Part shown: positions 7,849-46,798 of the stretch, one piece after another
Layout of the letters: every line of letters starts with the position of its first letter
How positions within the stretch are numbered: the first letter of the stretch is position 1
DNA from: a virus
Virus record (IMG/VR): IMGVR_UViG_3300025276_000020
Reading direction: 5' to 3' (one strand)
Length of the DNA stretch: 64,000 nucleotides
Translations under genes and position numbers: made by a program
Notes under the pieces: generated by a model
What the model was told of the DNA's origin: nothing
Database searches by the model: none
The model's input: only the letters and a program-made list of their open reading frames with translations

Positions 7849-7925
7849 GTCTCCTTAGCTCAGTTGGATAGAGCAACGGCCTTCTAAGCCGTAGGTCGCA
7901 AGTTCGAATCTTGCAGGGGACGCCA
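7849..7925 (+). tRNA. tRNA-Arg(UCU)
   Basis: Acceptor GTCTCCT/AGGGGAC, D-arm AGCTCAGTTGGATAGAGC, anticodon arm ACGGC-CTTCTAA-GCCGT, TTCGAAT, encoded CCA. Confidence 0.96.
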
Positions 7926-9014: not shown

Positions 9015-9090
9015 GCGTTTGTAGTTCAGTGGATAGAATATCGGTCTACGAAACCGAGGGTCAAAGGTTCGAATCCTTTCAAGCGCACCA
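9015..9090 (+). tRNA. tRNA-Arg(ACG)
   Basis: Acceptor GCGTTTG/CAAGCGC, anticodon arm TCGGT-CTACGAA-ACCGA, GGTTCGAATCC, encoded CCA. Confidence 0.95.
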
Positions 9091-30201: not shown

Positions 30202-30245
30202 ACTTGTATAGATTGAGATTAACCAATGAAGAGAGTACCTATATT

Positions 30246-31436
30246 ATGATGAATATTTCAAAAACCCAAGCTGAACTAATCGATGCCTTTGTAGCATCTA
30301 ATCCTAACCAAGACTCGTTTGAGCGAGCCGAGCTTTTCAAGTTCGCTGAAGAACAGGGCTTTTCTGGCTCTGCCGCTTATACACTAATGAAGCAAATGCC
30401 TCGTGTCGCACGTGGTGTCTATCAGATGGTAGGATCTGGCAATGTGATCCAGATGAATGCTCCTTTAGCCGCACCAGTTGCCGCACCTCAAGTCGAGCAG
30501 ACTCCCATAGCAAAAGCAGTTGCTAGGGTCCAGTCTACCTCTTCGGATGAAGTCTACATACCTTCTGCTGATCCTACTTTTGTGAAGTGGGGATATTTCT
30601 CTGACGTTCTTAAGATCGTCAAGTCTAATATGTTTTACCCAATGTATGTTGCCGGTCTGTCTGGTAACGGTAAGACGATGATGATCGAACAAGCCTGTGC
30701 TAACGCCAAACGTGAATATGTTCGTGTTCAGATTACACCCGAAACTGATGAAGATGATCTGATTGGTGGATTCCGCTTGCTGAATGGCGAGACAGTCTTT
30801 GCAAAAGGTCCAGTCATCAAAGCGATGGAAGCTGGTGCCCTACTGATGATCGATGAGATTGACCGTGGCTCTAACAAGCTAATGTGTCTACAGGGTGTGC
30901 TAGAAGGCAAGCCAGTTCTTATCAAGAAAACTGGTGAAGTGATTACGCCTGCTCCTGGCTTTAACGTGATTGCTACTGCTAACACTAAAGGTCAAGGTGA
31001 TGAACAGGGTCGCTTCATTGCGGCTACGATTATCGATGAGGCATTCCTCGAGCGTTTCACTATTACTCTTGAGCAACCTTACCCAACAGCGGCTACTGAG
31101 AAGCGTATCGTTACTAACCACATGTCAAAGTTTGGTGCAAACGATAAAGAGTTTACAGAAAAACTAGTTCAGTGGGCTCAAGCGATTCGTAAGACTTTCG
31201 AAGATGGTGGGATTGATGAGATTATCTCAACTCGTAGGTTGTGCCACATTGTACAGACCTTCTCGATCTTCAGTGATCGTATGAAAGCCATCGAGTTATG
31301 TGTCAATCGTTTTGATGCTGATACCCGTGCGGCATTCCTTGATCTCTACAGTAAGATCGATGCTGATGTAACCACTGAAGAGCCTACTGGTGAAGAAATC
31401 CAGAACACTGGAGACTATGAAGGCAGCCAGTACTAA
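30246..31436 (+). CDS. CobS-like MoxR AAA+ ATPase
   Basis: GLSGNGKT, ETDEDDLIGG, IDEIDRG, ATANTKG, AFLERF, ISTRRL. Confidence 0.9.
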   Translation: MMNISKTQAELIDAFVASNPNQDSFERAELFKFAEEQGFSGSAAYTLMKQMPRVARGVYQMVGSGNVIQMNAPLAAPVAAPQVEQTPIAKAVARVQSTSSDEVYIPSADPTFVKWGYFSDVLKIVKSNMFYPMYVAGLSGNGKTMMIEQACANAKREYVRVQITPETDEDDLIGGFRLLNGETVFAKGPVIKAMEAGALLMIDEIDRGSNKLMCLQGVLEGKPVLIKKTGEVITPAPGFNVIATANTKGQGDEQGRFIAATIIDEAFLERFTITLEQPYPTAATEKRIVTNHMSKFGANDKEFTEKLVQWAQAIRKTFEDGGIDEIISTRRLCHIVQTFSIFSDRMKAIELCVNRFDADTRAAFLDLYSKIDADVTTEEPTGEEIQNTGDYEGSQY

Positions 31437-31466
31437 ATACAGTACATGCGTTAACAGGAGCCTCTT

Positions 31467-31868
31467 ATGGCTTACAGCGACAAAGTACTCGACCACTATG
31501 AGAACCCACGCAATGTGGGTTCTTTCGACATTACAGATCCTAAAGTTGGTACTGGTATGGTAGGTGCCCCTGCTTGCGGAGATGTAATGAGGTTACAGAT
31601 CAAAGTTGGAGAAGATGGTATTATCGAAGACGCTAAGTTTAAAACTTACGGGTGCGGTTCAGCCATTGCCTCTAGCTCACTACTAACAGAGTGGGTTAAA
31701 GGTAGAACATTAGATGATGCAGAGTCTATCAGGAATACCCAGATTGCTGAAGAGTTGGCATTACCGCCAGTCAAGATACATTGTTCCGTACTTGCCGAAG
31801 ATGCGATTAAGACCGCAGTCAAAGATTTACGAGACAAAATACAAAAGCAAAAAGAGGAAGCAATTTGA
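31467..31868 (+). CDS. iscU: Fe-S cluster scaffold IscU
   Basis: YSDKVLDHYENPRNVG, GAPACGDVM, FKTYGCGSAIA, LPPVKIHCS. Confidence 0.97.
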   Translation: MAYSDKVLDHYENPRNVGSFDITDPKVGTGMVGAPACGDVMRLQIKVGEDGIIEDAKFKTYGCGSAIASSSLLTEWVKGRTLDDAESIRNTQIAEELALPPVKIHCSVLAEDAIKTAVKDLRDKIQKQKEEAI

Positions 31869-32266
31869 TATTCATCTATACATTATGTCTAGCAATACTA
31901 GCTAGAGTTTTTGTCAATCCCCTCCCAGAAGCAGAATATATCATCATGATAATACTTGGCGGATACTCTTCCTTATTTTACTTCATCACTACTCAAGTTC
32001 TTATCGGAATGAAAGATATGCGAATAGAGATAGAAGAGGGAAATCTATCTGAGATGTGGCAGATACGCATGATTCTATTGATGGCAATGTTCATCGTGTA
32101 TGAGCTTGGTTACATTGAACTATTCTACTACTGTCTTCCATACATCTTAATGGGCACAGTTGGTGACATATTTGCGACTCTTATGTTAATAGGATTCATA
32201 GAATATAGTGGTGATAGGGATCCAGACGAGGAAGACTGAGTATCTTCACACTTATTTACTAATTTT

Positions 32267-32290
32267 AAAGGCTCTAACGAGCCTTTTTTT
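32267..32290 (+). terminator. Intrinsic terminator
   Basis: AAAGGCTC-TAAC-GAGCCTTT then U-tract. Confidence 0.7.
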
Positions 32291-32297
32291 ATAAATA
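32290..32297 (+). promoter_or_regulatory. Late promoter heading the curli/cyclase cluster
   Basis: TATAAATA immediately after a terminator and before an AAGGAG RBS. Confidence 0.75.
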
Positions 32298-32319
32298 ACT
32301 ATAGTAAAGGAGTGAATTT

Positions 32320-32598
32320 ATGGACGTGCTAAGTTTGATAGCAGATGTTGGGTTTCCAATTGCGGCAGCCCTGTCAGGTGGATTTTTCGTGTTTCTTACG
32401 CTAAGGTTTATCCTCGACGGAGTATTGTCGGACATCAAAACACAAAGAGGCTTTGCACAAGCCTTAGATAATAGAATTAAGACGATGAACAATGAAGTCA
32501 TGAGAATAGACCTCATGATTTGTCACGCTCACAATGTAAGCCCAGACCTGGATAGAGTGGCGAGAGCCGATGGTCAGAAAGATGCGAGGAAAGATTAA
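32320..32598 (+). CDS. Single-TM holin-like/YvrJ-like protein
   Basis: I..VGFPI.AA TM helix plus coiled coil; paralog of 32975-33298. Confidence 0.55.
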   Translation: MDVLSLIADVGFPIAAALSGGFFVFLTLRFILDGVLSDIKTQRGFAQALDNRIKTMNNEVMRIDLMICHAHNVSPDLDRVARADGQKDARKD

Positions 32599-32801
32599 TG
32601 TACTATAAAGACTACGACTTAATGAAGTTCGATAACGGGTTTAGGGTTGTCAAAAAAGACAATCCAGACGATAAGTTTCATATGATCGATGAAGGTCTAT
32701 TGAAGATAGGGGATACGTTTGTAGTTGGTCCTAGTGGCTACTTCGAACATAGAGGCAATATTATGGACGCATTTGAGGATACAGATAATGCTTTGGCTTG
32801 A
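32598..32801 (+). CDS. Small hypothetical protein (paralog of next gene)
   Basis: DY...F.V...LLKIGDTFVV..SG. Confidence 0.6.
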   Translation: MYYKDYDLMKFDNGFRVVKKDNPDDKFHMIDEGLLKIGDTFVVGPSGYFEHRGNIMDAFEDTDNALA

Positions 32802-32982
32802 TTATAATATTAACCAAGTTGGCGCACATTTTAAAGTTGAGGGAGAGTGGGAAGGAGAAGTCATGGGTGTTCAAAAAGATGGAACAGCTAAAAACAACCA
32901 CTTATATAAGCCAGGAGATACTTTCGTTGTAAACGAAAATGGATGGTTAATGAAAATAGGATCAGATAAAGAAGATGCCTGA
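32788..32982 (+). CDS. Small hypothetical protein
   Basis: DY...F.V...LYKPGDTFVV..NG. Confidence 0.6.
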   Translation: MLWLDYNINQVGAHFKVEGEWEGEVMGVQKDGTAKNNHLYKPGDTFVVNENGWLMKIGSDKEDA

Positions 32983-33298
32983 GGCAGAAACACTTAATAT
33001 TGCTGAGATGATCTCGCAATACGGCTTTCCAATTATAGCCGCAGTAGGACTAGGGTACTTCATATACTATATCTGGAACTGGGTAACGGAAGAGGTCGAT
33101 CCGGTTATTGGCGAGTCACATATGACACTGATAGCACTGATCGATAGAGTAAGAATGTTAGATAATGACTTGATTAGGCTCAAAACTAAACTGGACATGA
33201 TCTTACAACAACAGGATAAAAACGATTATGAAAAAATATTTGATAACAACCGTGATAGTACTAACAGCGGTGATGACATCTCATTCGACAGCAAGTGA
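32975..33298 (+). CDS. Single-TM holin-like/YvrJ-like protein
   Basis: ISQYGFPIIAA TM helix; ALIDRVRMLDNDLIR matches ALDNRIKTMNNEVMR of 32320-32598. Confidence 0.55.
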   Translation: MPEAETLNIAEMISQYGFPIIAAVGLGYFIYYIWNWVTEEVDPVIGESHMTLIALIDRVRMLDNDLIRLKTKLDMILQQQDKNDYEKIFDNNRDSTNSGDDISFDSK

Positions 33299-33701
33299 GC
33301 TGACGCATGTATTTGTATCTCCAGCTTTTAATGGCAACGGTTACAGTTCGCACATACTGACAATAGAGCAGTTAGAGGCTAATAGAAGAAAAGAGATTAA
33401 GGACGAGAAAAAGGCACGGGAAGACGAAGCAGAACGTGATTTGAAATCTACCAATGCGTATAAGTTCCAGAACAATTTAGAGTCTAGAATTTATGCAACC
33501 CTCTCTAAGAATATAGCGGACTCGCTATTCGGTGAAGGTGGTGGAGAAACAATAGAAGGAGAATGGTACGAAGCAACTACTCCATTTGGAGATATAATTG
33601 CATGGAAACAAGAGGGCGGTAGAATATACGTAACTGTCACAGATTCCAATGGTGATATCGTTTCCGAATTTGACGTTCCTGTAGGAGATTTTTCGTTCTA
33701 A
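33228..33701 (+). CDS. csgF: Curli assembly protein CsgF
   Basis: Signal peptide then SELTHVFVSPAFNG.G; F.NNLESRIYATLS...LFG; directly upstream of csgG. Confidence 0.85.
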   Translation: MKKYLITTVIVLTAVMTSHSTASELTHVFVSPAFNGNGYSSHILTIEQLEANRRKEIKDEKKAREDEAERDLKSTNAYKFQNNLESRIYATLSKNIADSLFGEGGGETIEGEWYEATTPFGDIIAWKQEGGRIYVTVTDSNGDIVSEFDVPVGDFSF

Positions 33702-34489
33702 TGAAACAATTTCTTGCGCTATTAGCATTAGTACTGACTACAAGTGGATGTGCTACACTGACCGAAGACTTTGGATTTAAGCCCGAGCCAGAAACAGCAA
33801 AAGTAGTTAAGAATGAAAATACGGAATTTCTTACTATGCCAGCTCCTTCTACAGGTAAAGCAGTTGTAGCAGTATATGGGTTCACTGATAAGACAGGACA
33901 GAGAAAGCCTAGTGAAAGAATGGCTAACATTAGTACCGCTGTCACGCAGGGCTCTGAAGTTTGGCTGATCAAGGCGCTTCAAGAAGTTGGAGGAGGCACT
34001 TGGTTTCAAGTAGTAGAGAGAATAGGGTTAGAAAATCTAACTAAAGAAAGGCAAATAATTCGTCAGAGCCGAGCGGCTGTGAAGGATACAAGAGAATTGA
34101 GACCGATGCTATTTGCAGGGGTCTTAGTAGAGGGAGGCATAATTGGATATGATTCCAATGTGCTAACCGGTGGTGCAGGTGCTCGATACTTAGGTGTCGG
34201 TCCCAGTACCCAATACAGACAGGACATAGTGACTGTAACTATTAGAATGGTAAGCGTACAAAGCGGAGAAGTGTTGTTAAGTGTTTCAACTACAAAAACT
34301 ATTATAAGCACTGGAACAAGCATGACATTCTTTAGATTTTTCGATATGGGCACAAACTCGCTAGAGGCAGAAATGGGTCATTCTATTAATGAACCCGTCA
34401 ATTATGCCGTAAGAGTTGCTATAGAGCAAGCCGTCGTTGAGTTGATTAAAGAAGGAGAAAGGAAGGAATACTGGCAATACGTTAAGTAG
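33701..34489 (+). CDS. csgG: Curli secretion pore lipoprotein CsgG
   Basis: Lipobox TSGC; VAVYGFTDKTGQRK, STAVTQG, WFQVVER.GLENLTKERQIIR, EGGIIGYDSN..TGGAGARYLG, NEP...AV..AIE. Confidence 0.95.
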   Translation: MKQFLALLALVLTTSGCATLTEDFGFKPEPETAKVVKNENTEFLTMPAPSTGKAVVAVYGFTDKTGQRKPSERMANISTAVTQGSEVWLIKALQEVGGGTWFQVVERIGLENLTKERQIIRQSRAAVKDTRELRPMLFAGVLVEGGIIGYDSNVLTGGAGARYLGVGPSTQYRQDIVTVTIRMVSVQSGEVLLSVSTTKTIISTGTSMTFFRFFDMGTNSLEAEMGHSINEPVNYAVRVAIEQAVVELIKEGERKEYWQYVK

Positions 34490-34587
34490 ACCTTTATAAA
34501 ATTATAACACCTTTGATATGAGGAGTAAGTAAAACTAAAAAAATATGTTCGTTGTCGGGAGAGATCGAACAAAACGGAGTAATACAT

Positions 34588-35280
34588 ATGAGCAATTTAA
34601 AGCTTTACACTATAGCACTGATCGCATTTGCGGCTTTTGCTACAACCACACACGCTAGTGACGTGTACATTGTGCAGGCTGGTTCTAGCAGTACAATCGA
34701 TATCACTCAAACCGGTAATGGCAACACCGTGGGTAATTCAACAACTGCCACAACCTTAAATGGCGATAGTCAGGACATAGATATCAGTCAACAAGGTAAT
34801 TCCAACAAAACGGATATATCCACGAGTGCAGGATCTAGTTCAACAACCATCAATATATTGAATACTGGTGACTCGAACGAAACTGTGATGGGTATTGCCA
34901 CAACCGGAACGACCTTCACTTCAACGGTGACAGGCGACAGCAATCTGGTAACAGTCTGCGGTACCAACGACAACTCTGGAGTTGCATCTGTAGGATCAGT
35001 TACGGACGGAGTATCGACTGCTTCTACCACAGGCACAATAGCAACCTGTACAACAGAGGTCAGCGTTACTGATACGACTACAACTCTAGCGACCACTGGT
35101 GATTATAACACAGTCAATCTAGAATTGGATGCTGCCGATGCAGTGAATACTATAACAGTTGGCGGTAATGTGTCTAGTAACTTCAATGAGATAAATCTCA
35201 CACAATCTACTACAGATATTCCTGTAGTTACTATGACAGTTGATGGTGATAGTAATGCGATTAACATCATACAGAATTAA
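34588..35280 (+). CDS. Secreted curlin-repeat protein (CsgA/CsgB-like)
   Basis: Signal peptide ending THA; repeated I.Q.G..N / G..N beta-arc motifs; T/S/N/D-rich. Confidence 0.75.
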   Translation: MSNLKLYTIALIAFAAFATTTHASDVYIVQAGSSSTIDITQTGNGNTVGNSTTATTLNGDSQDIDISQQGNSNKTDISTSAGSSSTTINILNTGDSNETVMGIATTGTTFTSTVTGDSNLVTVCGTNDNSGVASVGSVTDGVSTASTTGTIATCTTEVSVTDTTTTLATTGDYNTVNLELDAADAVNTITVGGNVSSNFNEINLTQSTTDIPVVTMTVDGDSNAINIIQN

Positions 35281-36358
35281 TCTACTATTTACATTTATAC
35301 TATGTTTTGCTAGTTCCTTTGCGTTGGGTAATACTACGGAAACGATTGGTAGTATTACTTCGCAAAAGGGCAACCCTGCACAAATAACGAGAGATGGTGA
35401 TAGCATTTCTACGGAGAAGGGAACTGGTTTATCTATGGACGATGAGATCGTTACAGCAAAAACCAAACTGGGACTCACATTCATAGACGATACTAGAGTA
35501 AGTGTCACCGAACAATCCGTACTAATCATCGATGACTTTATCTATGATCCAAGTACTGGTACAGGCAAACTAGCAATGAACATCGCACTCGGCACTGTTA
35601 AGTACTCATCTGGTGCAATCGCAAGAAACTCAAGAGAAAATGTATCCCTAAAAACGCCCACTGCGACAATATCTGTTCGTGGTACTGACTTCACTATGAC
35701 CGTAGATGAACTGGGCAGAAGTATTGTTATTCTGTTACCGAGTTGTCCTCCCGTGGGCGATTGCTGGACAGGTGAGATTATGGTCTCTACCGAAGTGGGA
35801 CAGGTCATATTAAATCAGGCATATCAAGCAACATTAGTATCGAACAAAATGGCTACTCCGACTAAGCCTAAGATACTAGACATCACGGAAGCCAATATTG
35901 GTAACATGTTAATCATCACACCACCGCCAGAATTGAAAGGTATAGGATACATAGTTCAAGCAGAAGTTGCCGAATACTTAGATAGTGATTTGCTAGAATA
36001 TGCTGAACTAAATTCAGACGAATTAGAAGAAGATAAACTAGAATTCAAAGAGCTTGATGTAAACAGGCTAGACATAGATTTTCTATTCAACGTGCTAGAC
36101 GCTACTGCTATGCTACAAGACGAACAATTGGCTATTGACCCAGTTCTTCCTACAATAAATGCATATAGGACCACAGTTCAAGCATTCTACGATGAGGAAA
36201 AGATAGGCATTTATAGTGAAAGCTCTGTACACATTTCAGACGTAACTACCGAGCGTATAACAGACGGTGACGTAAACCTATACAAAGACAATGTGCCTGC
36301 ACTCATTCAGCTAAACGGAGGTGGAGATGTTATCATCAATATTACGCAAAGCCAGTAG
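35240..36358 (+). CDS. Secreted FecR-domain protein
   Basis: Signal/TM segment; F.DDT.V.V.EQS.L.IDDFIYDP, G.V.Y.SG.IA, TPTATISVRGTDF, GEI.V....G.V.L. Confidence 0.85.
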   Translation: MMVIVMRLTSYRINLLFTFILCFASSFALGNTTETIGSITSQKGNPAQITRDGDSISTEKGTGLSMDDEIVTAKTKLGLTFIDDTRVSVTEQSVLIIDDFIYDPSTGTGKLAMNIALGTVKYSSGAIARNSRENVSLKTPTATISVRGTDFTMTVDELGRSIVILLPSCPPVGDCWTGEIMVSTEVGQVILNQAYQATLVSNKMATPTKPKILDITEANIGNMLIITPPPELKGIGYIVQAEVAEYLDSDLLEYAELNSDELEEDKLEFKELDVNRLDIDFLFNVLDATAMLQDEQLAIDPVLPTINAYRTTVQAFYDEEKIGIYSESSVHISDVTTERITDGDVNLYKDNVPALIQLNGGGDVIINITQSQ

Positions 36359-37313
36359 TATTATAATTCTAGCGTGGTTCATATCCTCAGACGCTTATGC
36401 TGATACGGGTACTCCAGTGATGAACGTAAGTTCACAAGGCTCTACTTATATCTACGTCTATAATGGCAATGATACAACAACCTTTGCTGATCTAGTAGCC
36501 TTAGGCAATAGTATTGTTGGATGGATTGCTACTATGACATCTTATAGCGGCTTTGGATCTGGTTCGGTAGGAGATACTGCTTTTGTATGCAGTGTCAGTG
36601 GCAGTGGCGACAATCTATTTTTAACTATGTGTGACGCTGATGGCAATAGTTTTACCCCTGCGGCAGGTTCCTGGTACTCCTTTTCAGCTCCTGCAGCCGA
36701 CGCAACTCCAGTTTACGGATCAACTGCGCCAACTACCGCACAGCAGACTAAAATAAATGCAAAACTCGCATTAGCCGCCGCAGGACAAGGTGACACAGTT
36801 GAAGCAAGCATAACAGGTAGCTTTAATGATATATTCATAACACAAGCTGGTGGTATAAGTTACCTAGACTTAATAATTACCGGCAATCTTAATAATGTCG
36901 ATACTGAGCAGGATCTAAATTCAGGATCACACGGATATATCGATGCCACTATAATTGGTAACAGTAATGACATAGACATACTACAAAAAGGCATCGGCAA
37001 CAAAGCCGCTGTACTTACCGTAACGGGAGATAGTAATGATGTCGATATAGCGCAACACGGTCTTGGTGATAAATTTATAGACTTAGAGATTACTGGCGAT
37101 AATCACAAGGCAGATATATTTCAAAACGGATCAGGCGCTCATTCTGCTAGAGTCGAACTCGATGGCTCACAGCCATGGGATTTCAAGTTAGAGCAAAGAG
37201 GAGCAACCGATAAGAATTACACATTGCCACATACCATGAGTGATGGAGCTGGAGTTAGTGGAACTTGTAATGCTTCAGGCGGTTGCAACCTAATAGTATA
37301 TCAAAATGACTAG
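36321..37313 (+). CDS. Secreted protein with C-terminal curlin-like repeats
   Basis: Signal peptide ending AYA; repeats ITG..N.V.I.Q.G.G (TGDSNDVDIAQHGLG, TGDNHKADIFQNGSG); ends C....GC.L.VYQN. Confidence 0.75.
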   Translation: MEMLSSILRKASSIIILAWFISSDAYADTGTPVMNVSSQGSTYIYVYNGNDTTTFADLVALGNSIVGWIATMTSYSGFGSGSVGDTAFVCSVSGSGDNLFLTMCDADGNSFTPAAGSWYSFSAPAADATPVYGSTAPTTAQQTKINAKLALAAAGQGDTVEASITGSFNDIFITQAGGISYLDLIITGNLNNVDTEQDLNSGSHGYIDATIIGNSNDIDILQKGIGNKAAVLTVTGDSNDVDIAQHGLGDKFIDLEITGDNHKADIFQNGSGAHSARVELDGSQPWDFKLEQRGATDKNYTLPHTMSDGAGVSGTCNASGGCNLIVYQND

Positions 37314-37663
37314 AGTCGATAAATCTCCTGTTGTTTACTGGACATCAGAATGGGTGAAAACTGGTAAGACAGAAGTCTATGCAGATAAGAACGGTGACAA
37401 GCGTACTAGACCCGAACTTAGTCTGGTAGGCGAACGAAATCCCAATTGGAAACCTATAGCAAGACGTTACTAAATAGATGTACAAAAGATACACATAGAA
37501 GAGTATATGTTGTGCGAATAGATAAAACATGGGGAGAGTGGCACTGGGTTAACGATGATGGTGTTACTGTAAGTCCTCGCTTTATAACAAAACAAGAGGC
37601 TTGCTACTGGCTAGTGCAATTCGAATGCGATAGATCAGAGCCAATGAAAGTAGATACAGAGAC

Positions 37664-39700
37664 ATGAAAATCATCCTTTCGCCATTATTTGCTATTATCA
37701 CTACGCTAATTCTAGCGTGGGTAACACTATCTAATCCAACTCTACTACAAAGCATTGATCTAAAGATCGCAGATCAACTCATAGTCGAAGAAAAGCAATT
37801 CATCGATGATGTGGTATTAGTAGACATATCAGAAAAGACTTTAGAAACTCATGGGCAATACCCACTACCAAGAGACATCTACGGGGATTTAATCCTCAGA
37901 TTGCGTCAAGCGAATGCAGGCATTATCGTATTTAATCTATCATTCCCAGAAGAAGATCGAACAGGTCAAGACGAATATTTCACGGATATGCTCGGGCAAG
38001 GCGTCATCTTATCTCATTTCCCTAGTAATAAGGCTCAAAACAGATCAGCATACAGTACTGCTATTGTACAGGTTGGCGGTGATGCTTTGGATTATATTTA
38101 CAATTATCCTGGTATAGCCGCAAACTTAGAGAAGTACGAGAACGTAGCAACAGGCATTGGAATTGCAAATACTCTACCAGAAATTGATGGAGTAGTAAGA
38201 CGATTACCCATGCTTGCTGGAGTACAGGAATCCTTATATCCTTCAATCGTTTTAGAGATATTCAAGGCTTACACTGGATCAAATACCTTTCAAGTAAAAA
38301 ACAGCGAATTTGGTGTGACAGCAGTTAGAGTAAAAGGGTTTCCAATCATCAATACGGATTCCTTAAGCCGCATATGGATGAACCCAAACTATGATTTTAC
38401 TCGATATGATCTAACGGATACGATGCCAGATTTGAATGGAGCAACAGTTTTTGTTGGGGTTACTGCTGACGGCATATCAAACCCCGTACCTACGGCTTCT
38501 GGTGCTGTCTATGGGCACGATCTTACTGCTAGGGCATTCACATCCGTAAAGAATCAGTATAATATTGTTACTCACCCATTAGAAGAATTCATTAAACTTA
38601 TCGGAATCATTGTGCTAGGTCTTTCTATTATTGGTCTGAGCTATGTTAGATTTGGTTGGGCATTGTCTATAGGCATGACAGGCGCACTGATCTATCTTCC
38701 TGTATATTTCTTCAATACTGATCTATCACTACTGATCACTACAGTTCAAGGATTGATGGGCATCATGATTTTCACTCATGTCTATGCCGTCAAGTATGGA
38801 CAAGAATACTTTCAAAAGATGGCTATCAAGAAGCAGTTTGCTGGATATGCATCTCCTGCGGTCGTCAAGATGCTTCAAGAAAACCCTGCCTTAGTCAAGG
38901 ATGGAGTTAAGAAAGAAGTGTCAATTGTGTTCTCTGATCTTCGTGGCTTCACGCCTCTTGGTGAGTCGTTTGGTGACGATGTAAAGGGTCTTACTCAAGT
39001 GATGAACGGATACATGGATGCAATATCTAAACCAATTCTAGATGTAAATGGAATGGTTATCAAGTATATCGGTGATGCGTCTATGCACATACACAATGCT
39101 CCCATAGACGATCCAGATCACCCTAAGACTGGCATACAGACATGTCTCAACATGCTAAGAGCAGTGGAGGAATTCAATGAAGAACTTACAAAAACTGGTC
39201 GCCCACCAGTCGGCATGGGTGCCGGTATTAATACTGGTCTTGGTTATATTGGCGAAATGGGCTCTACTGCACGACACTCCTACGACATTCTCGGAGACGC
39301 AGTTAGTACGGCAGCCAGATTAGAAAGTTCGTGCAAAGCATATGGTGTTGTTCTGATCGTAGGTCCATCAACATATCAAGCAACCCGTGAAGACTTTTTC
39401 TACTTAAAATTAGATGATTTGGCAGTTAAAGGTAAGACAGTAGGACTAGACATATACACAGTACTTGATCTAGATTCCGAAGAGCATTACGGAGTTGAGA
39501 TCGCTAAACACGGGTACATGCATCATAAATACAGTTCTAGACAGTTCAATGAAGCTATTGAGCTATGCAAAGAACTCAAAGGAAGCTTCGAAGGTCATAT
39601 GGACGGGTACTACGACATATGGATAGAACGCTGTGCCTACATGGAAACACTGAACCTTCCAGACGATTGGGACGGAATCTTTAGAGCCACTAGCAAGTAA
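37664..39700 (+). CDS. CHASE2-domain membrane adenylate cyclase (class III)
   Basis: CHASE2 motifs VVLVDISE..L...GQYPLPR, DGVVRRLP, GATVFVG.TA, TAS..VYG; 3 TM helices; cyclase FSDLRGFT, IKYIGDA, GAGINTG, GEMGS, YDILGDAVSTAARLES, VKGK. Confidence 0.93.
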   Translation: MKIILSPLFAIITTLILAWVTLSNPTLLQSIDLKIADQLIVEEKQFIDDVVLVDISEKTLETHGQYPLPRDIYGDLILRLRQANAGIIVFNLSFPEEDRTGQDEYFTDMLGQGVILSHFPSNKAQNRSAYSTAIVQVGGDALDYIYNYPGIAANLEKYENVATGIGIANTLPEIDGVVRRLPMLAGVQESLYPSIVLEIFKAYTGSNTFQVKNSEFGVTAVRVKGFPIINTDSLSRIWMNPNYDFTRYDLTDTMPDLNGATVFVGVTADGISNPVPTASGAVYGHDLTARAFTSVKNQYNIVTHPLEEFIKLIGIIVLGLSIIGLSYVRFGWALSIGMTGALIYLPVYFFNTDLSLLITTVQGLMGIMIFTHVYAVKYGQEYFQKMAIKKQFAGYASPAVVKMLQENPALVKDGVKKEVSIVFSDLRGFTPLGESFGDDVKGLTQVMNGYMDAISKPILDVNGMVIKYIGDASMHIHNAPIDDPDHPKTGIQTCLNMLRAVEEFNEELTKTGRPPVGMGAGINTGLGYIGEMGSTARHSYDILGDAVSTAARLESSCKAYGVVLIVGPSTYQATREDFFYLKLDDLAVKGKTVGLDIYTVLDLDSEEHYGVEIAKHGYMHHKYSSRQFNEAIELCKELKGSFEGHMDGYYDIWIERCAYMETLNLPDDWDGIFRATSK

Positions 39701-39806: not shown

Positions 39807-40415
39807 AGTTGTATAAAATAATGAAAGAGAGTGATAATATGACAGCATTTACCAAAGAAGACTTTACCTGGGACGGAATGTACCTAATGTATAGAGGCAG
39901 ACACACCCAGAGTGTGAACATGGAAGTCGCAAGACCTACTTGTCACCCATCTTGGCATGGGTTACCAAAGCCAGAATTCATCGCTAGATTCAAGTACGGA
40001 TATAAGCCTTGGAAAGCTTGGGTCAACTTCTTAGTTAAGAACACTACTGTTGAGCAATACTTGGCTCTACAAGAAGCAGAGCATCCAGTCGGTGCGATGA
40101 AAGCCTTAGGTTACAAGGGGAAGTGTTAATGATAGAGTATTTTAAAGAAATCACGGTGTGGGATAGCAATATCCCAAATCACACATACATGATCGATAAA
40201 GACGGTCATCTCGTTGGGTACATCAAAACAGGTACCACCGAAGAAATCATCTTCGGCAAGCCCATGAAGCAGTTTTCTAAGTCCCGCAGAAAATTCGTCA
40301 AGCTAAAAAGGTAGTATAAATATCTCACTTTTGCATAAAAAGACTTGACACAGGATTTATATCGTGTATAATAAAGTTATAGACTTAGAAGTATAATCAA
40401 CAGAGGCTAATCTAA

Positions 40416-41009
40416 ATGAATATTAAAACAACTGGATATTGGTTATCGGGTGCTATGTCAGTAGCATGTTTACTTGGTTTGTCGTACATGGGTGTTCATG
40501 TTGCTCAAGTGCAAGCTAATGAAGTTGCGACAATAAAGAAAGCTCAAGAAGTCTCTATTGTCCAAGCACAAATACTCCGTGAAGAAAGAGAGTATGAGTA
40601 CGCAACTCAACATCGCTGTCTAGCGTTAAATATATATCACGAGGCTAGAAGTGATGGAGACTTAGGTCAACAAGCAGTTGGCTTTGTTACTATGAATAGG
40701 GTAGAGAATGATAGGTATCCTGAGACCATATGTGACGTTGTGTATCAAGCACACGTGAACGCAAAGGGTAGTCCAATCATAAACAAGTGCCAATTTTCTT
40801 GGTATTGTGACGGTAAATCAGACACCCCAAAAGATAAAGAACGTATTCATACTGCCATGTTAGTGGCAGAATATGTCATGTCGCAATATAATAAGATACC
40901 TGATATGACAGGTGGTGCTATTATGTACCATGCTCACTACAGTAATCCATACTGGTCTAAGGCATACGAGCGTACAGTACGAATAGATAGTCATATATTC
41001 TACAAATAA
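40416..41009 (+). CDS. Cell wall hydrolase, SleB/Hydrolase_2 family
   Basis: CLALNIYHEAR, V.MNRV...YP.TICDVVYQ, CQFSWYCDGK, YHA.Y..PYWS, IDSHIFY; N-terminal TM. Confidence 0.92.
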   Translation: MNIKTTGYWLSGAMSVACLLGLSYMGVHVAQVQANEVATIKKAQEVSIVQAQILREEREYEYATQHRCLALNIYHEARSDGDLGQQAVGFVTMNRVENDRYPETICDVVYQAHVNAKGSPIINKCQFSWYCDGKSDTPKDKERIHTAMLVAEYVMSQYNKIPDMTGGAIMYHAHYSNPYWSKAYERTVRIDSHIFYK

Positions 41010-41029: not shown

Positions 41030-42238
41030 ATGATAGATACAAGCAAGTTCCAGGACGTGATAACAGGCTTAAAAAATAGCGGTAATTACAGAGTCTTTAA
41101 TGACATAATACGTGAGAGAGGTGAATTCCCTCAAGCATTATATTACGGTCCATATAACATTAAGAACATAGTTAATTGGTGTAGTAATGACTATCTGGGC
41201 ATGGGACAACACAAAGTAGTATTAGATGCAATGCACACGGCTTTAGATCAGACTGGTGCAGGTAGTGGCGGTACTAGAAATATTGCAGGTACTAGCCACT
41301 ATCATGTTGCATTAGAGCGTGAACTTGCCGAATTGCACAATAAAGAAAGCGCACTGTTGTATACTAGTGCTTATGTGGCAAACGAGTGGACGTTAATTGC
41401 TCTCAGTAAGATTATTCCAGATATAGAATTTGTGAGCGACAGTAAGAACCACGCAAGTCTTATTCAAGGCATGAAACACAGTGGTGCACCCAAGCACGTA
41501 TTTGAACACAATAACATGGAACAGTTGCGTGAAGTCCTATCTAATATAAAGGGTACTCCTTGCATTGTGTTTGAAAGCGTGTATAGTATGGATGGATATG
41601 TAAGCTTAATCGAAGAGATACTGGATATAGCTGAAGAATATAAAGCTATGACGTATATAGATGAAGTACATGCTGTTGGATTATATGGAAATACTGGCGC
41701 AGGATTCACTGAGTTATTGGGAGTGCAACATAGAGTTGACTTCATCAATGGAACGCTAGGTAAGGCTTTTGGTTGTCAAGGAGGATACATATCTGGCGAT
41801 GCCATTGCTATCGATGCTATACGCAGTATTGCGAGTGGATTCATATTTACAACAAGTCTAAGCCCAGTGATGTGTGCAGGTGCATTGAGTGCTATCAAGT
41901 ATCTTAAGAGCAGTAATGGTGTGGAGCTGAGAGCTATTCACCAAGAACGTGCAAAGAAACTAAAAGACGTACTCAAGGAAAGAGATATAGATGTGCTAGA
42001 GAATGAAACTCATATCGTGCCTGTTATGATAGGAGATGCTGTAAGATGTAAGTCTGTCAGCGATGAACTTATTACACGTTACGATATATATGTACAACCT
42101 ATAAATTATCCGACAGTATCTATGGGAACTGAAAGACTTAGATTTGCGCCTACTCCACTACACACAGATGCTATGATGCTCGATTTAGCTGAAAAACTCA
42201 AAGAAATAATAGGATTTAGAAAGTCAAACTTTTTATAA
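41030..42238 (+). CDS. hemA: 5-aminolevulinate synthase (C4/Shemin pathway)
   Basis: WCSNDYLGMG, GAGSGGTRNI.G, NHASLIQG, FESVYSMDG, DEVHAVGLYG, GTLGKAFG, YVQPINYPTV..GTERLR. Confidence 0.95.
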   Translation: MIDTSKFQDVITGLKNSGNYRVFNDIIRERGEFPQALYYGPYNIKNIVNWCSNDYLGMGQHKVVLDAMHTALDQTGAGSGGTRNIAGTSHYHVALERELAELHNKESALLYTSAYVANEWTLIALSKIIPDIEFVSDSKNHASLIQGMKHSGAPKHVFEHNNMEQLREVLSNIKGTPCIVFESVYSMDGYVSLIEEILDIAEEYKAMTYIDEVHAVGLYGNTGAGFTELLGVQHRVDFINGTLGKAFGCQGGYISGDAIAIDAIRSIASGFIFTTSLSPVMCAGALSAIKYLKSSNGVELRAIHQERAKKLKDVLKERDIDVLENETHIVPVMIGDAVRCKSVSDELITRYDIYVQPINYPTVSMGTERLRFAPTPLHTDAMMLDLAEKLKEIIGFRKSNFL

Positions 42239-42274: not shown

Positions 42275-42979
42275 GTGTTAACGTTTGAAAATTATCTTAA
42301 AGAAGAGTTTGTTACCCTTAAGAGGGAACTAGAAGAAGGTGTCAACGATCCAGCTATTTTTAAAGCAGTGTTCTTAGCCGGTGGACCTGGCTCTGGTAAA
42401 TCATTCATTGTTGGTAAGACTGGACTCACATCGCTTGGATTCAAAGTTGTCAACTCTGATGACGCATTCGAGAAAGCAATGGCTAAAGCAGGTATGGAGA
42501 TGGACCCAGAGAATATCTTCTCTGTGCAAGGTCAAGAGTTACGTGGTAAAGCAAAAGTCTTAACAGGCGTTAAGCAAGCAATGTATATTAAAGGTCGTTT
42601 AGGGTTAGTCATCGATGGTACTGGTAAAGATACTCAGAAGTTGATCAAACAGGCAAAATCGTTAAAATCTATTGGGTATGACACTAGTATGATCTTTGTT
42701 AACACCGATCTAGCTACAGCGCAGTCACGTAATAAAGCACGTAAACGTACACTACCTGAAGATGAAGTAGAGCAGTATTGGACAACAGTTCAGAAAAACA
42801 TTGGTGCATTCCAGACGTTTTTCGGCAAGCAAAAGTTTACTGTAGTAGATAACTCTGAAGGTAAAGACTACGGCGTAGAGACTCTACGAGCTTATAAAGA
42901 AGTCACTAAATTCGTGAAAGCAAAGCCTGATAATTCCAGTGCTAAAGCATGGATTAAGGCACAACGAAAAACAAGGTAA
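42275..42979 (+). CDS. P-loop kinase (zeta-toxin/AAA_33-like)
   Basis: KAVFLAGGPGSGKS, VNSDD, LVIDGTG, RNKARKR lid. Confidence 0.8.
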   Translation: MLTFENYLKEEFVTLKRELEEGVNDPAIFKAVFLAGGPGSGKSFIVGKTGLTSLGFKVVNSDDAFEKAMAKAGMEMDPENIFSVQGQELRGKAKVLTGVKQAMYIKGRLGLVIDGTGKDTQKLIKQAKSLKSIGYDTSMIFVNTDLATAQSRNKARKRTLPEDEVEQYWTTVQKNIGAFQTFFGKQKFTVVDNSEGKDYGVETLRAYKEVTKFVKAKPDNSSAKAWIKAQRKTR

Positions 42980-43178: not shown

Positions 43179-43715
43179 TTGAATTTAAAAGAACTAACGT
43201 GGGATAACCACAGAGATGCTGAACGCAAGAAGTTTGCATCAATCCTAATGAGTGGCAAGATAGACCCAGCCCTCTATCATCGATACCTCGTAAATCAATT
43301 TTATAACTACGTTTCACTAGAGTACAAGTTACCTCTAACGGAACTTGGTCTGACCGATATTGCCAGGTCTCAATTGATAGGAGAAGATATTCGTGAACTC
43401 GAAGACTTATATGGATTTGATAGAATGGATATTACAATCGCACAATGTACTAAGGATTATACCGAGTACTGCGAGAACTTATATGAGAATGATAAAGATG
43501 GTCTAGTGGCACATATGTATGTCCGACACTTTGGAGATATGTACGGCGGAGCTATGATCGCTAAACGTATTCCTGGTAGTGGCAAGATGTACCAGTTTGA
43601 GAAAGTAGAAGAACTAAAAACGAATGTTCGTAATCTGTTGAGTGACAGTATGGCACCAGAGGCTAATAGATGTTTTAAATTTGCAATAAGGCTATTTGAG
43701 GAGTTATTACAATGA
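43179..43715 (+). CDS. hemO: Heme oxygenase (HemO-type)
   Basis: LKELTWDNHRDAE proximal His; AHMYVRHFGDMYGG distal helix; EANRCF. Confidence 0.92.
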   Translation: MNLKELTWDNHRDAERKKFASILMSGKIDPALYHRYLVNQFYNYVSLEYKLPLTELGLTDIARSQLIGEDIRELEDLYGFDRMDITIAQCTKDYTEYCENLYENDKDGLVAHMYVRHFGDMYGGAMIAKRIPGSGKMYQFEKVEELKTNVRNLLSDSMAPEANRCFKFAIRLFEELLQ

Positions 43716-43854: not shown

Positions 43855-44544
43855 ATGGTTATGAGTATAGTATGGAAAAGTCTCATCGATCTACAAGATC
43901 ACTTCATAGAGGAGTTTTCTGGCAGTGGAATCGAAGTACAAGAACCTGGTATGGAGCAGTTCAACAAACCTGGTTGGGTAAATAGAGTTTGGACATCCCA
44001 AGACTATCGTAGGGCACACGTTGATGTTGTCGATATGCGTGAAGAGAAGAAGATGTGGATGATGCACGTCTGTGTGTTTCCTCACACCGATAGTGATGCA
44101 CCTATCTATGGATTTGATGTAATAGCTGGTGCTAATAAGATGACTGGCGCATTCCACGATTTCTCTGCTACGACTAATATAGAACACCCAATGATTGATT
44201 GGTTTGGTACGGTCGCATCTGCACTATCATGGAAGAGAGAGCGAGAGTTACCTGAATGGGCTAAAGCTATATTCACTGATCATATGATTGCCGCAGGTAT
44301 GGTTAAAGATCCTATAGAGATTGCACAGATAACTGGCACGGCAATGGAAACACTATCATATTATCTCAAAGAAATCGGTAACTATAACGGATACTCTTCA
44401 CAAGAATTGGGCATAGCCACACAGAATAACTATGCACATTATCAGAAACAGAATCCTCACACACCTAACGTAATGAAGAGCCTAGGCATCGATCCTGATG
44501 ACGTAGACTTATTCATTCAGAAGTGTCTTTTTCCAGAGCTTTAA
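43855..44544 (+). CDS. pcyX: Ferredoxin-dependent bilin reductase, PcyX/PcyA-like
   Basis: RRAHV, MHVCVFP, PIYGFDVIAG, AFHDFS, RELPEWAKAIF, QKQNPHT, LFP; next to heme oxygenase. Confidence 0.85.
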   Translation: MVMSIVWKSLIDLQDHFIEEFSGSGIEVQEPGMEQFNKPGWVNRVWTSQDYRRAHVDVVDMREEKKMWMMHVCVFPHTDSDAPIYGFDVIAGANKMTGAFHDFSATTNIEHPMIDWFGTVASALSWKRERELPEWAKAIFTDHMIAAGMVKDPIEIAQITGTAMETLSYYLKEIGNYNGYSSQELGIATQNNYAHYQKQNPHTPNVMKSLGIDPDDVDLFIQKCLFPEL

Positions 44545-46066: not shown

Positions 46067-46104
46067 TTGACAAGTGCGTCAAAATGGTGTAAACTGTATA
46101 AATA
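46067..46104 (+). promoter_or_regulatory. Tandem early (TTGACA-17-TAAACT) and late (TATAAATA) promoters for tmRNA
   Basis: Both motifs lie directly upstream of the tmRNA acceptor piece. Confidence 0.7.
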
Positions 46105-46109
46105 AGACG

Positions 46110-46405
46110 TAGGTTGACAGTTGTTAATCTACAATTTGATTTGTTGAAGCAGATTGATACTGAACAGGACTCGGGTTCGAATCCCGACAGCTCCACCAAA
46201 AGCATACTGAATATGGCTAGTATGTTTTTGATGGGGCTGAACTGGGAATCGACTGGCAGGGTAGAAAAGTGGAGAATCCGGGTACGAGCTCCGTTAACGC
46301 AAGAAACTAAAGTAAACGCAAACGATAATTTTGCTCCTGTAGACTACGCCCTAGCGGCATAGTTGTACGGGGTTCGCCAGTACCTGTCAACAGAAACTGG
46401 CACCT
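46110..46405 (+). ncRNA. ssrA: Circularly permuted two-piece tmRNA, tag ANDNFAPVDYALAA
   Basis: Acceptor piece ends GGTTCGAATCCCGACAGCTCCACCA (46198); hairpin spacer; coding piece starts GGGGCTG (46233) giving G3:U70; tag 46318-46362; GTTGACAG/CTGTCAAC pairing between pieces. Confidence 0.93.
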
Positions 46406-46435
46406 TTTTACGAAACAAACAAAGAAAGAAAACAG

Positions 46436-46798
46436 ATGAAAAACGTAATTTTGGCTACGGCCGCACTAGTAGCCTCAGCATCAGCAGTCGCCGCATTCGA
46501 TGTGACTGACACATTTAGTATTGACAGCGAAGTAAAAACGTGGTATAATACAAGTCAATCAACATGGACTGCACACTACGAAGTTAAACCAACTTACTCA
46601 CCCTCGGCTCTACCAGGTATGGCTGTATATGTGATGAACGATGGCGATCTACGTGATGTAAAGTATGATGGCGTTGAACTTGGAATGGAATACAAAATGG
46701 ATAACTCAATGGTTAGCCCAGTATTGAAAGCCAAGGTAGGATATGATGAAGATTGGAATCGTGGTGACATTTTTGTCGGTGCAACTTTCAACTTCTAA
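46436..46798 (+). CDS. Secreted porin-like beta-barrel protein
   Basis: Ala-rich signal peptide; amphipathic beta strands; C-terminal VGATFNF. Confidence 0.65.
   Translation: MKNVILATAALVASASAVAAFDVTDTFSIDSEVKTWYNTSQSTWTAHYEVKPTYSPSALPGMAVYVMNDGDLRDVKYDGVELGMEYKMDNSMVSPVLKAKVGYDEDWNRGDIFVGATFNF

Follow-up and report, generated by a model that had tools for sequence, protein, structure and literature searches.

A further copy of the viral curli module in a T4-like marine myophage, with a plausible FecR-CHASE2 sensor linked to the curli apparatus

The virus record IMGVR_UViG_3300025276_000020 of IMG/VR, analyzed here as a single stretch of 64,000 nucleotides (the window), carries a curli gene cluster in which csgF, csgG and two curlin-repeat genes are joined by genes for a FecR-domain protein and a CHASE2 class III cyclase. 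This cluster is a further copy of the viral type VIII secretion system (T8SS) module published by Wittmers et al. (2022; PMC9599517). With slightly better than even confidence, it is read here as a late viral curli module in which the FecR-domain protein and the CHASE2 cyclase would form a periplasmic sensor that is tied to the curli apparatus and sets cyclic-nucleotide synthesis. What is added to the published description is the generality of the FecR-CHASE2 pairing, the domain layout of the FecR protein, a version of the module in Caulobacteraceae, and a phage-only catalytic variant of the cyclase. The locus itself is an ordinary result, one more copy of a published cassette. The module is carried by phages that infect the most abundant heterotrophs of the sea, and regarding FecR as a partner of CHASE2, not as an iron regulator, yields a concrete and testable model. 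It also ties the phage module to a widespread, poorly understood bacterial pair of FecR surface proteins and CHASE2 cyclases or kinases. Two phages with the module, Methylophilales phage Melnitz and Pelagibacter phage HTVC008M, are both in culture, so experiments are feasible.

In podo- and myo-pelagiphages, the viral T8SS region is arranged as 'HK'(s)-CsgF-CsgG-CsgA/B-FecR-CsgA/B-AC. It was found at 65/65 GOV2.0 stations, is expressed in metatranscriptomes, accounts for ~0.1% of assembled viral proteins, and its genes occur at frequency ratios close to 1 over 65 ocean stations (Wittmers et al., 2022; PMC9599517). The same authors argue for selection on the entire multigene unit and assign FecR an iron-related regulatory role and the cyclase control over the T8SS, and CHASE2 is not named (PMC9599517). 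Two other studies deal with curli genes only, and their main texts contain neither the cyclase nor FecR (Zaragoza-Solas et al., 2020, PMC7029224; Buchholz et al., 2022, PMC9004378). The papers on the pelagiphage T8SS are silent on CHASE2 and its pairing with FecR, on the layout of the FecR protein and on the catalytic variant described below. The first-pass annotation of the window, made from the letters alone, was aware of no functional account of the combined set of genes from a phage; since Wittmers et al. (2022; PMC9599517) described it, the module is not new. In addition, csgF, csgG, curlin, FecR, curlin and cyclase genes are present in the GenBank records of Melnitz and HTVC008M (MZ577097 and KC465899), and are annotated so in Melnitz.

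The window holds the genes by which a viral T8SS is recognized, with CsgF, CsgG and a curlin encoded in order and followed by FecR, a second curlin and the cyclase (Table 1). At the level of sequence, type VIII secretion is indicated by a CsgG lipoprotein, CsgF and exported curlin-repeat subunits. All elements of the cluster that had been named at first pass, together with their order and coordinates, were recovered through Pfam matches and topology. The mature N-terminus of CsgF keeps an SPAFNGNG motif, which we take to resemble the NPNFGG peptide through which E. coli CsgF binds CsgG. Curlin 2 consists of an N-terminal domain of ~150 aa and ~5 CsgA-like repeats of 22-23 aa, while the true start of curlin 1 is likely the Met at ~34588. 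The CsgG lipoprotein pore, CsgF and the curlin-repeat subunits with Sec signals are shared with csgBAC-csgDEFG of E. coli and Salmonella. In contrast to that system, the phage module adds the FecR protein and the cyclase, some of its CsgG constriction-loop residues appear different when judged by eye, CsgE was not found, and no CsgD-type family turned up among the open reading frames (ORFs) scanned. CsgE (PF10627) gave no match in Melnitz, HTVC008M, two related contigs, the Caulobacteraceae genome described below, or the window ORFs scanned; alphaproteobacterial curli operons also lack CsgE (PMC9599517). As had been noted at first pass, csgE, csgD, a TonB-dependent receptor and an extracytoplasmic function (ECF) sigma factor are all missing among the window ORFs scanned, which for the ECF-sigma and TonB-receptor domains were those in 27.6-44.5 kb.

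The source of the window is an uncultured T4-like marine myophage with baseplate and tail genes, a CobS-like ATPase, NifU, heme oxygenase, bilin reductase and a transfer-messenger RNA (tmRNA). Its gene set and order are those of the Melnitz and pelagiphage T8SS, including the small membrane-protein paralogues o1 and o3, and in both cases the module occupies a T4-like myophage island between replication or auxiliary metabolic genes and structural genes. It differs from Melnitz and the pelagiphages in belonging to another phage lineage with a GC content of ~40%, in having the extra small ORFs o2 and s1, and in having an endolysin gene close on the 3' side. Related loci were collected from 8 IMG/VR contigs and 9 low-GC phage contigs binned into assorted metagenome-assembled genomes (MAGs); genome contigs were searched for module loci with a 6-sequence alignment, a single-sequence scan of them with the FecR protein having given no match. 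The order of the module is the same in Melnitz, HTVC008M and all uncultured phage loci with enough flank, at 30-93% identity, and in most phage copies the FecR gene is flanked by a curlin gene on each side. Identity of the window module to Melnitz ranges from ~32% (curlins) to 65% (o3) and to HTVC008M from 28 to 48%; for the cyclase, which has full-length relatives in both, it is 47.5% and 31%, respectively. Because the order is kept down to ~30% identity in related phage loci, it is not attributed to chance. The synteny check suggested at first pass therefore came out in favor of the cluster, as csgFG, FecR and the cyclase co-occur in order in all related phages examined. The FecR-domain protein has >4,000 close metagenome relatives.

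The 5' border of the module also follows a conserved plan. An intrinsic terminator hairpin is succeeded by the T4-type late-promoter motif TATAAATA, an AAGGAG ribosome-binding site and the ATG of o1 at 32320, so that the terminator/late-promoter boundary placed at 32290 at first pass was found with its hairpin at 32267-32286 and its motif at 32290-32297. The motif occurs 13 times in the window against 5.65 expected, its next occurrence on the + strand being at 40315, and it stands directly 5' of o1 in most related phage loci. Packing is tight, and the gene overlaps remarked upon at first pass amount to six pairs (o3/csgF, csgF/csgG, curlin 1/FecR, FecR/curlin 2, curlin 2/s1 and s2/cyclase). 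On account of the terminator and TATAAATA in the window, and of the motif being kept 5' of o1 in relatives, the module would be transcribed late in infection.

A version of the module was found in two related Caulobacteraceae MAGs. Loci L019 (7026-13046) and L018, from CANGCO010000005 and CANGEH010000001, carry csgF, csgG, curlin, curlin, FecR and CHASE2-cyclase genes without o1 and o3. The flanks of the cluster are chromosomal (methylmalonyl-CoA mutase, acyl-CoA dehydrogenase, a TetR regulator and DsbA) and include one marginal, non-structural PHROG match (metallophosphoesterase); the GC content of the module is below that of the flanks. Full-length relatives of the Caulobacteraceae FecR protein were found in none of the other sampled genomes (401 Alphaproteobacteria and 301 Caulobacteraceae). 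In a tree of CHASE2 cyclases, built with FastTree only and accompanied by composition warnings, all module copies make up one clade, and the Caulobacteraceae copies group as sisters of L021, a contig from a freshwater phage. Judging by sequence, the module has clearly been exchanged between phage and bacterium, in one direction or the other. Since FecR and the cyclase have been published as lying outside bacterial T8SS operons, the Caulobacteraceae cluster is a rare exception.

The pairing of FecR with CHASE2 is a general one in bacteria. The unbiased sample consisted of the 40 best-scoring CHASE2 hits across 251 genomes of Alphaproteobacteria, and the 8 kb on either side of each were searched with a locally built FecR profile. 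A FecR-domain gene lies directly alongside the CHASE2 cyclase in 14/40 of these loci, compared with a chance rate roughly estimated at 1-3%. In the reverse direction, a CHASE2 gene adjoins several of 69 bacterial FecR loci (L031, L032 and four Noviherbaspirillum genomes). Likewise, in the 'BiofilmReg' operon of Burkholderia and Pseudomonas, a CHASE2 histidine kinase is encoded together with a periplasmic protein of the LysM-FecR type (PMC5192318). The remark at first pass that CHASE2 cyclases often sit beside FecR genes in alphaproteobacteria is thus borne out by the 14/40 loci and by the LysM-FecR/CHASE2 operon (PMC5192318), and because of both, the pairing is held to be general and independent of iron signaling. 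As a pairing it is well founded, and the two predicted products make up what appears to be a general bacterial sensor pair. Many FecR partners of CHASE2 cyclases have an N-terminal FecR domain fused to RTX, cadherin-like, Big_9 or laminin-G repeats, suggesting that surface adhesins are sensed by CHASE2 at their periplasmic end. FecR-repeat proteins of 1000-2100 aa by CHASE2 cyclases were seen at L137, L140, L144, L129 and L161 (also P0265, P0267 and P0270). The 800-1600-aa FecR proteins of the deep search were considered as NsrA-like barrels, a candidate rejected once Pfam identified them as FecR-RTX fusions.

Compared with bacterial FecR-CHASE2 pairs of the CyaD1/CyaK and BiofilmReg types, the phage locus shares an exported FecR-domain protein encoded beside a sensor with one transmembrane (TM) segment, CHASE2 and three further TM segments (TM-CHASE2-3TM) and a cytoplasmic output. 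In contrast, bacterial FecR partners carry LysM, TPR, RTX, cadherin or Big_9 parts, not a curlin-like C-terminus, and have no curli genes nearby (0/69 FecR loci; for CsgG, CsgF and curlin, 0/40 alphaproteobacterial CHASE2 loci). In the NsrA-CyaK/CyaD system of S. meliloti, an outer-membrane protein is needed for the cAMP response of a CHASE2 cyclase to an external protein signal (PMC7529298, PMC13001267). An outer-membrane protein and an inner-membrane CHASE2 cyclase are common to both systems, the phage relay being a proposed one. NsrA differs in being one large beta-barrel protein, not a CsgG pore, and no counterpart of the receiver Clr was found in the phages. In S. meliloti papers, a FecR domain is assigned to SMc02177; the FecR domain of NsrA suggested at first pass is putative.

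The FecR-domain protein was modeled with AlphaFold2 from 42 homologues, with a mean predicted local distance difference test (pLDDT) score of 81.7. The model consists of a signal helix (aa 8-28), a confident beta domain (aa 37-200), a predicted linker of ~90 aa (about aa 215-305) that is acidic, leucine-spaced and of low confidence or disordered, and a C-terminal domain (aa 313-370) of six strands, which is confident in the full-length model. The modeled beta domain matches the periplasmic domains of PupR (CCSSD, Z 14.8) and BDI_1681 (Z 13.8). The protein was considered as an anti-sigma factor, a role that was rejected for lack of an anti-sigma domain and, among the ORFs of 27.6-44.5 kb, of an ECF sigma factor or a TonB receptor; only the signal-peptide helix precedes the FecR domain and no ECF sigma gene is adjacent, and it is for these reasons not an anti-sigma factor. 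Among related complete phage genomes, the sole sigma70_r2-like match was a distant ORF of ~200 aa.

Two features of the FecR protein suggest a connection with surface fibers. The first half of the FecR domain (model residues 33-128) superposes on PDB 5ix9 with Z 7.3 and a root-mean-square deviation of 2.1 Å over 73/76 residues, which is a weak similarity in a range where a common arrangement alone can explain the match. The 5ix9 structure is a periplasmic retention module that holds RTX adhesins such as MpIBP/LapA via an outer-membrane pore (bioRxiv 10.1101/198937). The retention module of LapA/MpIBP and the FecR protein are alike in a small periplasmic beta domain and a flexible linker, with a remainder that in the phage protein would be tied to a surface fiber. 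LapA/MpIBP differ in using type I secretion with a TolC-like pore, and in having a retention domain that is cleaved by LapG under cyclic di-GMP control; the likeness of the phage protein is structural only and moderate. The second feature is the C-terminal 56 residues, which have a conserved pattern in the phage FecR family and end in an invariant Gln (Q370). Compared with the curlin 2 profile, they gave P=4e-4, while 20 column-shuffled controls gave P>=0.22 and other parts of the protein P>=0.2; the similarity is nonetheless weak, with an HHalign probability of 34%. A curlin-like nature of the C-terminal domain is suggestive at most, and a structure search with the full model returned weak Ig-like matches alone for this domain (Z ~3).

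The reading that we favor can be stated as a series of steps. Sec-exported products would give the infected cell an outer-membrane pore of CsgG and CsgF and two curlin-repeat fiber subunits. The FecR-domain protein and the CHASE2 cyclase may form a two-protein periplasmic sensor of a type common in Proteobacteria; a long flexible linker and a curlin-like C-terminal domain probably attach the FecR member to the curli apparatus. The input to CHASE2 would be the condition of the pore or fiber, or of something bound to it, and the output would be control of cyclic-nucleotide synthesis in the cytoplasm, most likely of cAMP. The downstream effect could be on lysis timing, superinfection control or aggregation. 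The analysis itself establishes which genes are present, their synteny and late-promoter motif, the topology and export signals of the products, the FecR fold, the linkage of FecR to CHASE2 in bacteria and a conserved catalytic core; the FecR-CHASE2 contact, the curli link, the product and the downstream effect are all steps that we infer, and the trans-envelope sensor is regarded as plausible. The link of FecR and CHASE2 to the fiber is also plausible on indirect grounds, namely the adhesin-fused FecR partners of bacteria, the 5ix9 superposition, the curlin-like C-terminus, the gene order and the Caulobacteraceae cluster. A trans-envelope cAMP signaling system had been proposed at first pass; of that interpretation, the co-occurrence, the late motif and the FecR-CHASE2 pairing were retained, and the claim of novelty was given up.

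Several observations weigh against the favored reading, beginning with the weakness of both FecR similarities and with the isolated C-terminal domain, for which the model was unusable (pLDDT 43). Many podophage modules have FecR without the cyclase (PMC9599517). In L014 and L016, an insertion splits the cyclase from the module, and the cyclase then has its own TATAAATA; in L016 (12627-14079), unrelated genes on the opposite strand, including a cytidylyltransferase gene, lie between curlin 2 and the cyclase. The catalytic half of the cyclase recombines independently of the sensor half, and Ser548 of the window enzyme replaces the transition-state Asn (GDxVNxAxR) of 43/43 bacterial copies and of solved adenylate cyclases. 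Finally, the first-pass proposal that cAMP feeds a host CRP-type regulon found no support. The cyclic-nucleotide-binding domain PF00027 was detected in none of Melnitz, HTVC008M and two related contigs, a search in which other receptor types (GAF etc.) were not included, nor in an incomplete Pelagibacter MAG.

Some of these points speak for two independent functions that happen to be co-located, an explanation that is unlikely. Here, the curli fibers would serve 'sibling capture' aggregation or superinfection protection, and FecR-CHASE2 would be a separate host-takeover sensor in the same hypervariable island. The frequent absence of the cyclase from podophage modules (PMC9599517), the inserts in L016, L010 and L014, the split cyclases of L014 and L016 with their own motif, the separate recombination history of the catalytic half, and the lack of curli genes near bacterial FecR and CHASE2 loci are all in keeping with such an arrangement. 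It accounts less well for a FecR gene that is embedded between curlin genes in most phages and overlaps both in the window, for the resemblance of the FecR C-terminus to curlin repeats, for the presence of all six genes together in a Caulobacteraceae chromosome, and for gene-frequency ratios near 1 at 65 stations (PMC9599517).

The sensor tied to the curli apparatus also has a stricter form, which is rather improbable. In this form, the FecR protein would be a trans-outer-membrane tether, with its C-terminal domain in or capping the fiber, its acidic linker passing through CsgG/CsgF, and its FecR domain staying in the periplasm at CHASE2. If true, the cell would report fiber assembly, pulling, contact with a particle or cell, or an incoming phage as a cyclic-nucleotide pulse that times lysis or blocks superinfection, and the virus would encode a surface mechanosensor. 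Since the D-K-D-D-S-R active site considered below is confined to phages, such a pulse might consist of a nucleotide other than cAMP.

It has also been proposed that the module times lysis, with the CsgG/CsgF pore as a gated secretin- or pinholin-like channel whose opening is tuned by the other genes (Buchholz et al., 2022; PMC9004378), which we consider improbable. The late-promoter motif and the small, single-TM paralogues o1 and o3 are in keeping with it, as is a Hydrolase_2 endolysin-like gene that follows the cyclase by ~120 bp in the nearest relatives and lies at 40416-41009 in the window. In Melnitz and HTVC008M, no endolysin gene is adjacent. CsgG, being a Sec- and Lol-dependent outer-membrane lipoprotein, is unable to depolarize the inner membrane as a holin would. 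The proposal moreover assumed that fiber subunits were missing (PMC9004378), whereas two conserved curlin-repeat proteins above the Pfam cut-off are present.

A further alternative concerns the cyclase, which might be dead or make a product other than cAMP. The protein is laid out as TM1, CHASE2 (~aa 16-319), three TM segments, a catalytic domain (aa 416-592) and a tail of ~80 aa, and its catalytic signature is D425 K467 D471 D541 S548 R552. The metal-binding D425 and D471, the substrate Lys K467 and the transition-state Arg R552 are invariant across the compared cyclases. The paired changes of Thr/Ser to Asp and of Asn to Ser give the variant D-K-D-D-S-R, which is confined to nine phage copies (the window, Melnitz and seven more); all 43 bacterial CHASE2 cyclases, the two Caulobacteraceae copies and seven phage copies have D-K-D-(S/T/R)-N-R. 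The mapping of these positions agrees with an alignment to P. aeruginosa CyaB (3r5g), and because the window cyclase belongs to the phage-only variant, cAMP as its product is uncertain. Loss of activity or a different product is nevertheless quite unlikely. No part of the protein is better conserved than the catalytic half, which is 75-86% identical among D-K-D-D-S-R copies from lineages whose CHASE2 halves are ~35% identical, a level that speaks for an active site under constraint and in working order. Both metal Asp residues, the Lys and the Arg are intact, and the Lys-Asp pair is the ordinary adenine-specifying pair of class III cyclases. The closest solved relatives are adenylate cyclases as well, and the window enzyme is likely active, with cAMP the most likely product.

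The cyclases of L006-L009, close relatives of the window, are mosaic, with a CHASE2 half 88% identical to that of the window and a catalytic half that is 40% identical and of the HTVC008M type. From such differences in identity between the halves, it follows that the output domain has been exchanged by recombination and is strongly constrained, and the mosaic indicates a recombination breakpoint where the sensor half meets the output half.

In enterobacteria, cAMP-CRP acts on curli genes through CsgD. That FecR senses iron and cAMP drives curli transcription, as follows from the view of FecR and the cyclase as regulators of T8SS expression (Wittmers et al., 2022; PMC9599517) and fits the Pfam family name FecR, is very unlikely, since a cytoplasmic anti-sigma domain is absent from the FecR protein, neither an ECF sigma factor nor a TonB-dependent transducer was found nearby, no CsgD or CRP-type cyclic-nucleotide-binding protein was found in related phages, the cluster is fronted by a phage late-promoter motif and not by a cAMP-dependent one, and FecR beside CHASE2 is a general pairing unrelated to iron.

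Table 1. Features of the curli module and its 5' border in the window.
Feature	Coordinates	Strand	Description
Intrinsic terminator hairpin	32267..32286	+	8-bp stem and T run; closes the upstream CobS/NifU block
T4-type late-promoter motif TATAAATA	32290..32297	+	22 nt 5' of o1 start
o1	32320..32598	+	92 aa; N-terminal TM segment, coiled-coil tail; o3 paralogue (phrog_18771)
o2	32598..32801	+	67-aa soluble ORF, conserved; 3' of cyclase in Melnitz
o3	32975..33298	+	107 aa; o1 paralogue (phrog_18771); overlaps csgF start
csgF	33228..33701	+	Pfam CsgF E=1.9e-13, 51.2 bits (cut-off 25.8); signal peptide
csgG	33701..34489	+	Pfam CsgG E=3.7e-54, 183.7 bits; outer-membrane lipoprotein pore; lipobox ...SGC, Cys17
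Curlin-repeat protein 1	34552..35280	+	Curlin_rpt 25.0 bits (cut-off 20.7); signal peptide; Thr/Ser/Gly/Asn-rich repeats
FecR-domain protein (phrog_37870)	35240..36358	+	Pfam FecR 32.2 bits (cut-off 24); signal peptide
Curlin-repeat protein 2	36321..37313	+	Curlin_rpt 31.6 bits (cut-off 20.7); signal peptide
s1	37306..37473	+	55-aa ORF; kept in nearest relatives at 42-69% identity
TM-CHASE2-3TM class III cyclase (phrog_35576)	37664..39700	+	CHASE2 E=9e-33; Guanylate_cyc E=1e-15

Among the small ORFs, the paralogous membrane proteins o1 and o3 accompany the module in relatives, and in L014 and L017 they are found downstream of it on the opposite strand. They precede csgF, as does the 'HK' label of Wittmers et al., and o1 is probably this 'HK' gene, the pair being candidates for it. 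A Pfam search of o1 and o3 gave no histidine-kinase domain, even at E<=1. A further ORF, s2 (37446-37667), is poorly conserved and doubtful.

Variation was also seen at the 3' end of the module in related loci. The insert of L010 (6109-7896), between curlin 2 and the cyclase, comprises a 595-aa ORF that Pfam does not match and a small ORF weakly similar to outer-membrane-protein barrels, and another insert occupies the same interval in L014 (5601-7204). In L013 (4825-6663), the cyclase frame is interrupted, giving two ORFs, and curlin 2 is short, indicating a decaying copy or an assembly error.

The region just 5' of the module (30204-32239) encodes a CobS-like AAA ATPase, a NifU-like Fe-S scaffold and a 124-aa ORF without assignment, and CobS is also found 5' of the module in the nearest relatives. 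On the 3' side, the Hydrolase_2 endolysin-like gene is preceded by a TATAAATA of its own (40315) and by a perfect match to a sigma70-like promoter (40345-40372). It is followed by genes for a class I/II aminotransferase (41030-42238) and a Zeta-toxin/AAA_33-like kinase (42275-42979), and then by the adjoining auxiliary metabolic genes for heme oxygenase (43179-43715) and ferredoxin-dependent bilin reductase (43855-44544), homologues of which lie beside the curli module of L015. A phage tmRNA (ssrA) with the tag peptide ANDNFAPVDYALAA is encoded at 46106-46453, with TATAAATA upstream at 46097; Melnitz has been reported to carry a riboswitch-controlled tmRNA (PMC9004378). Two tRNA-Arg genes are located at 7849-7925 and 9015-9090 (anticodons TCT and ACG).

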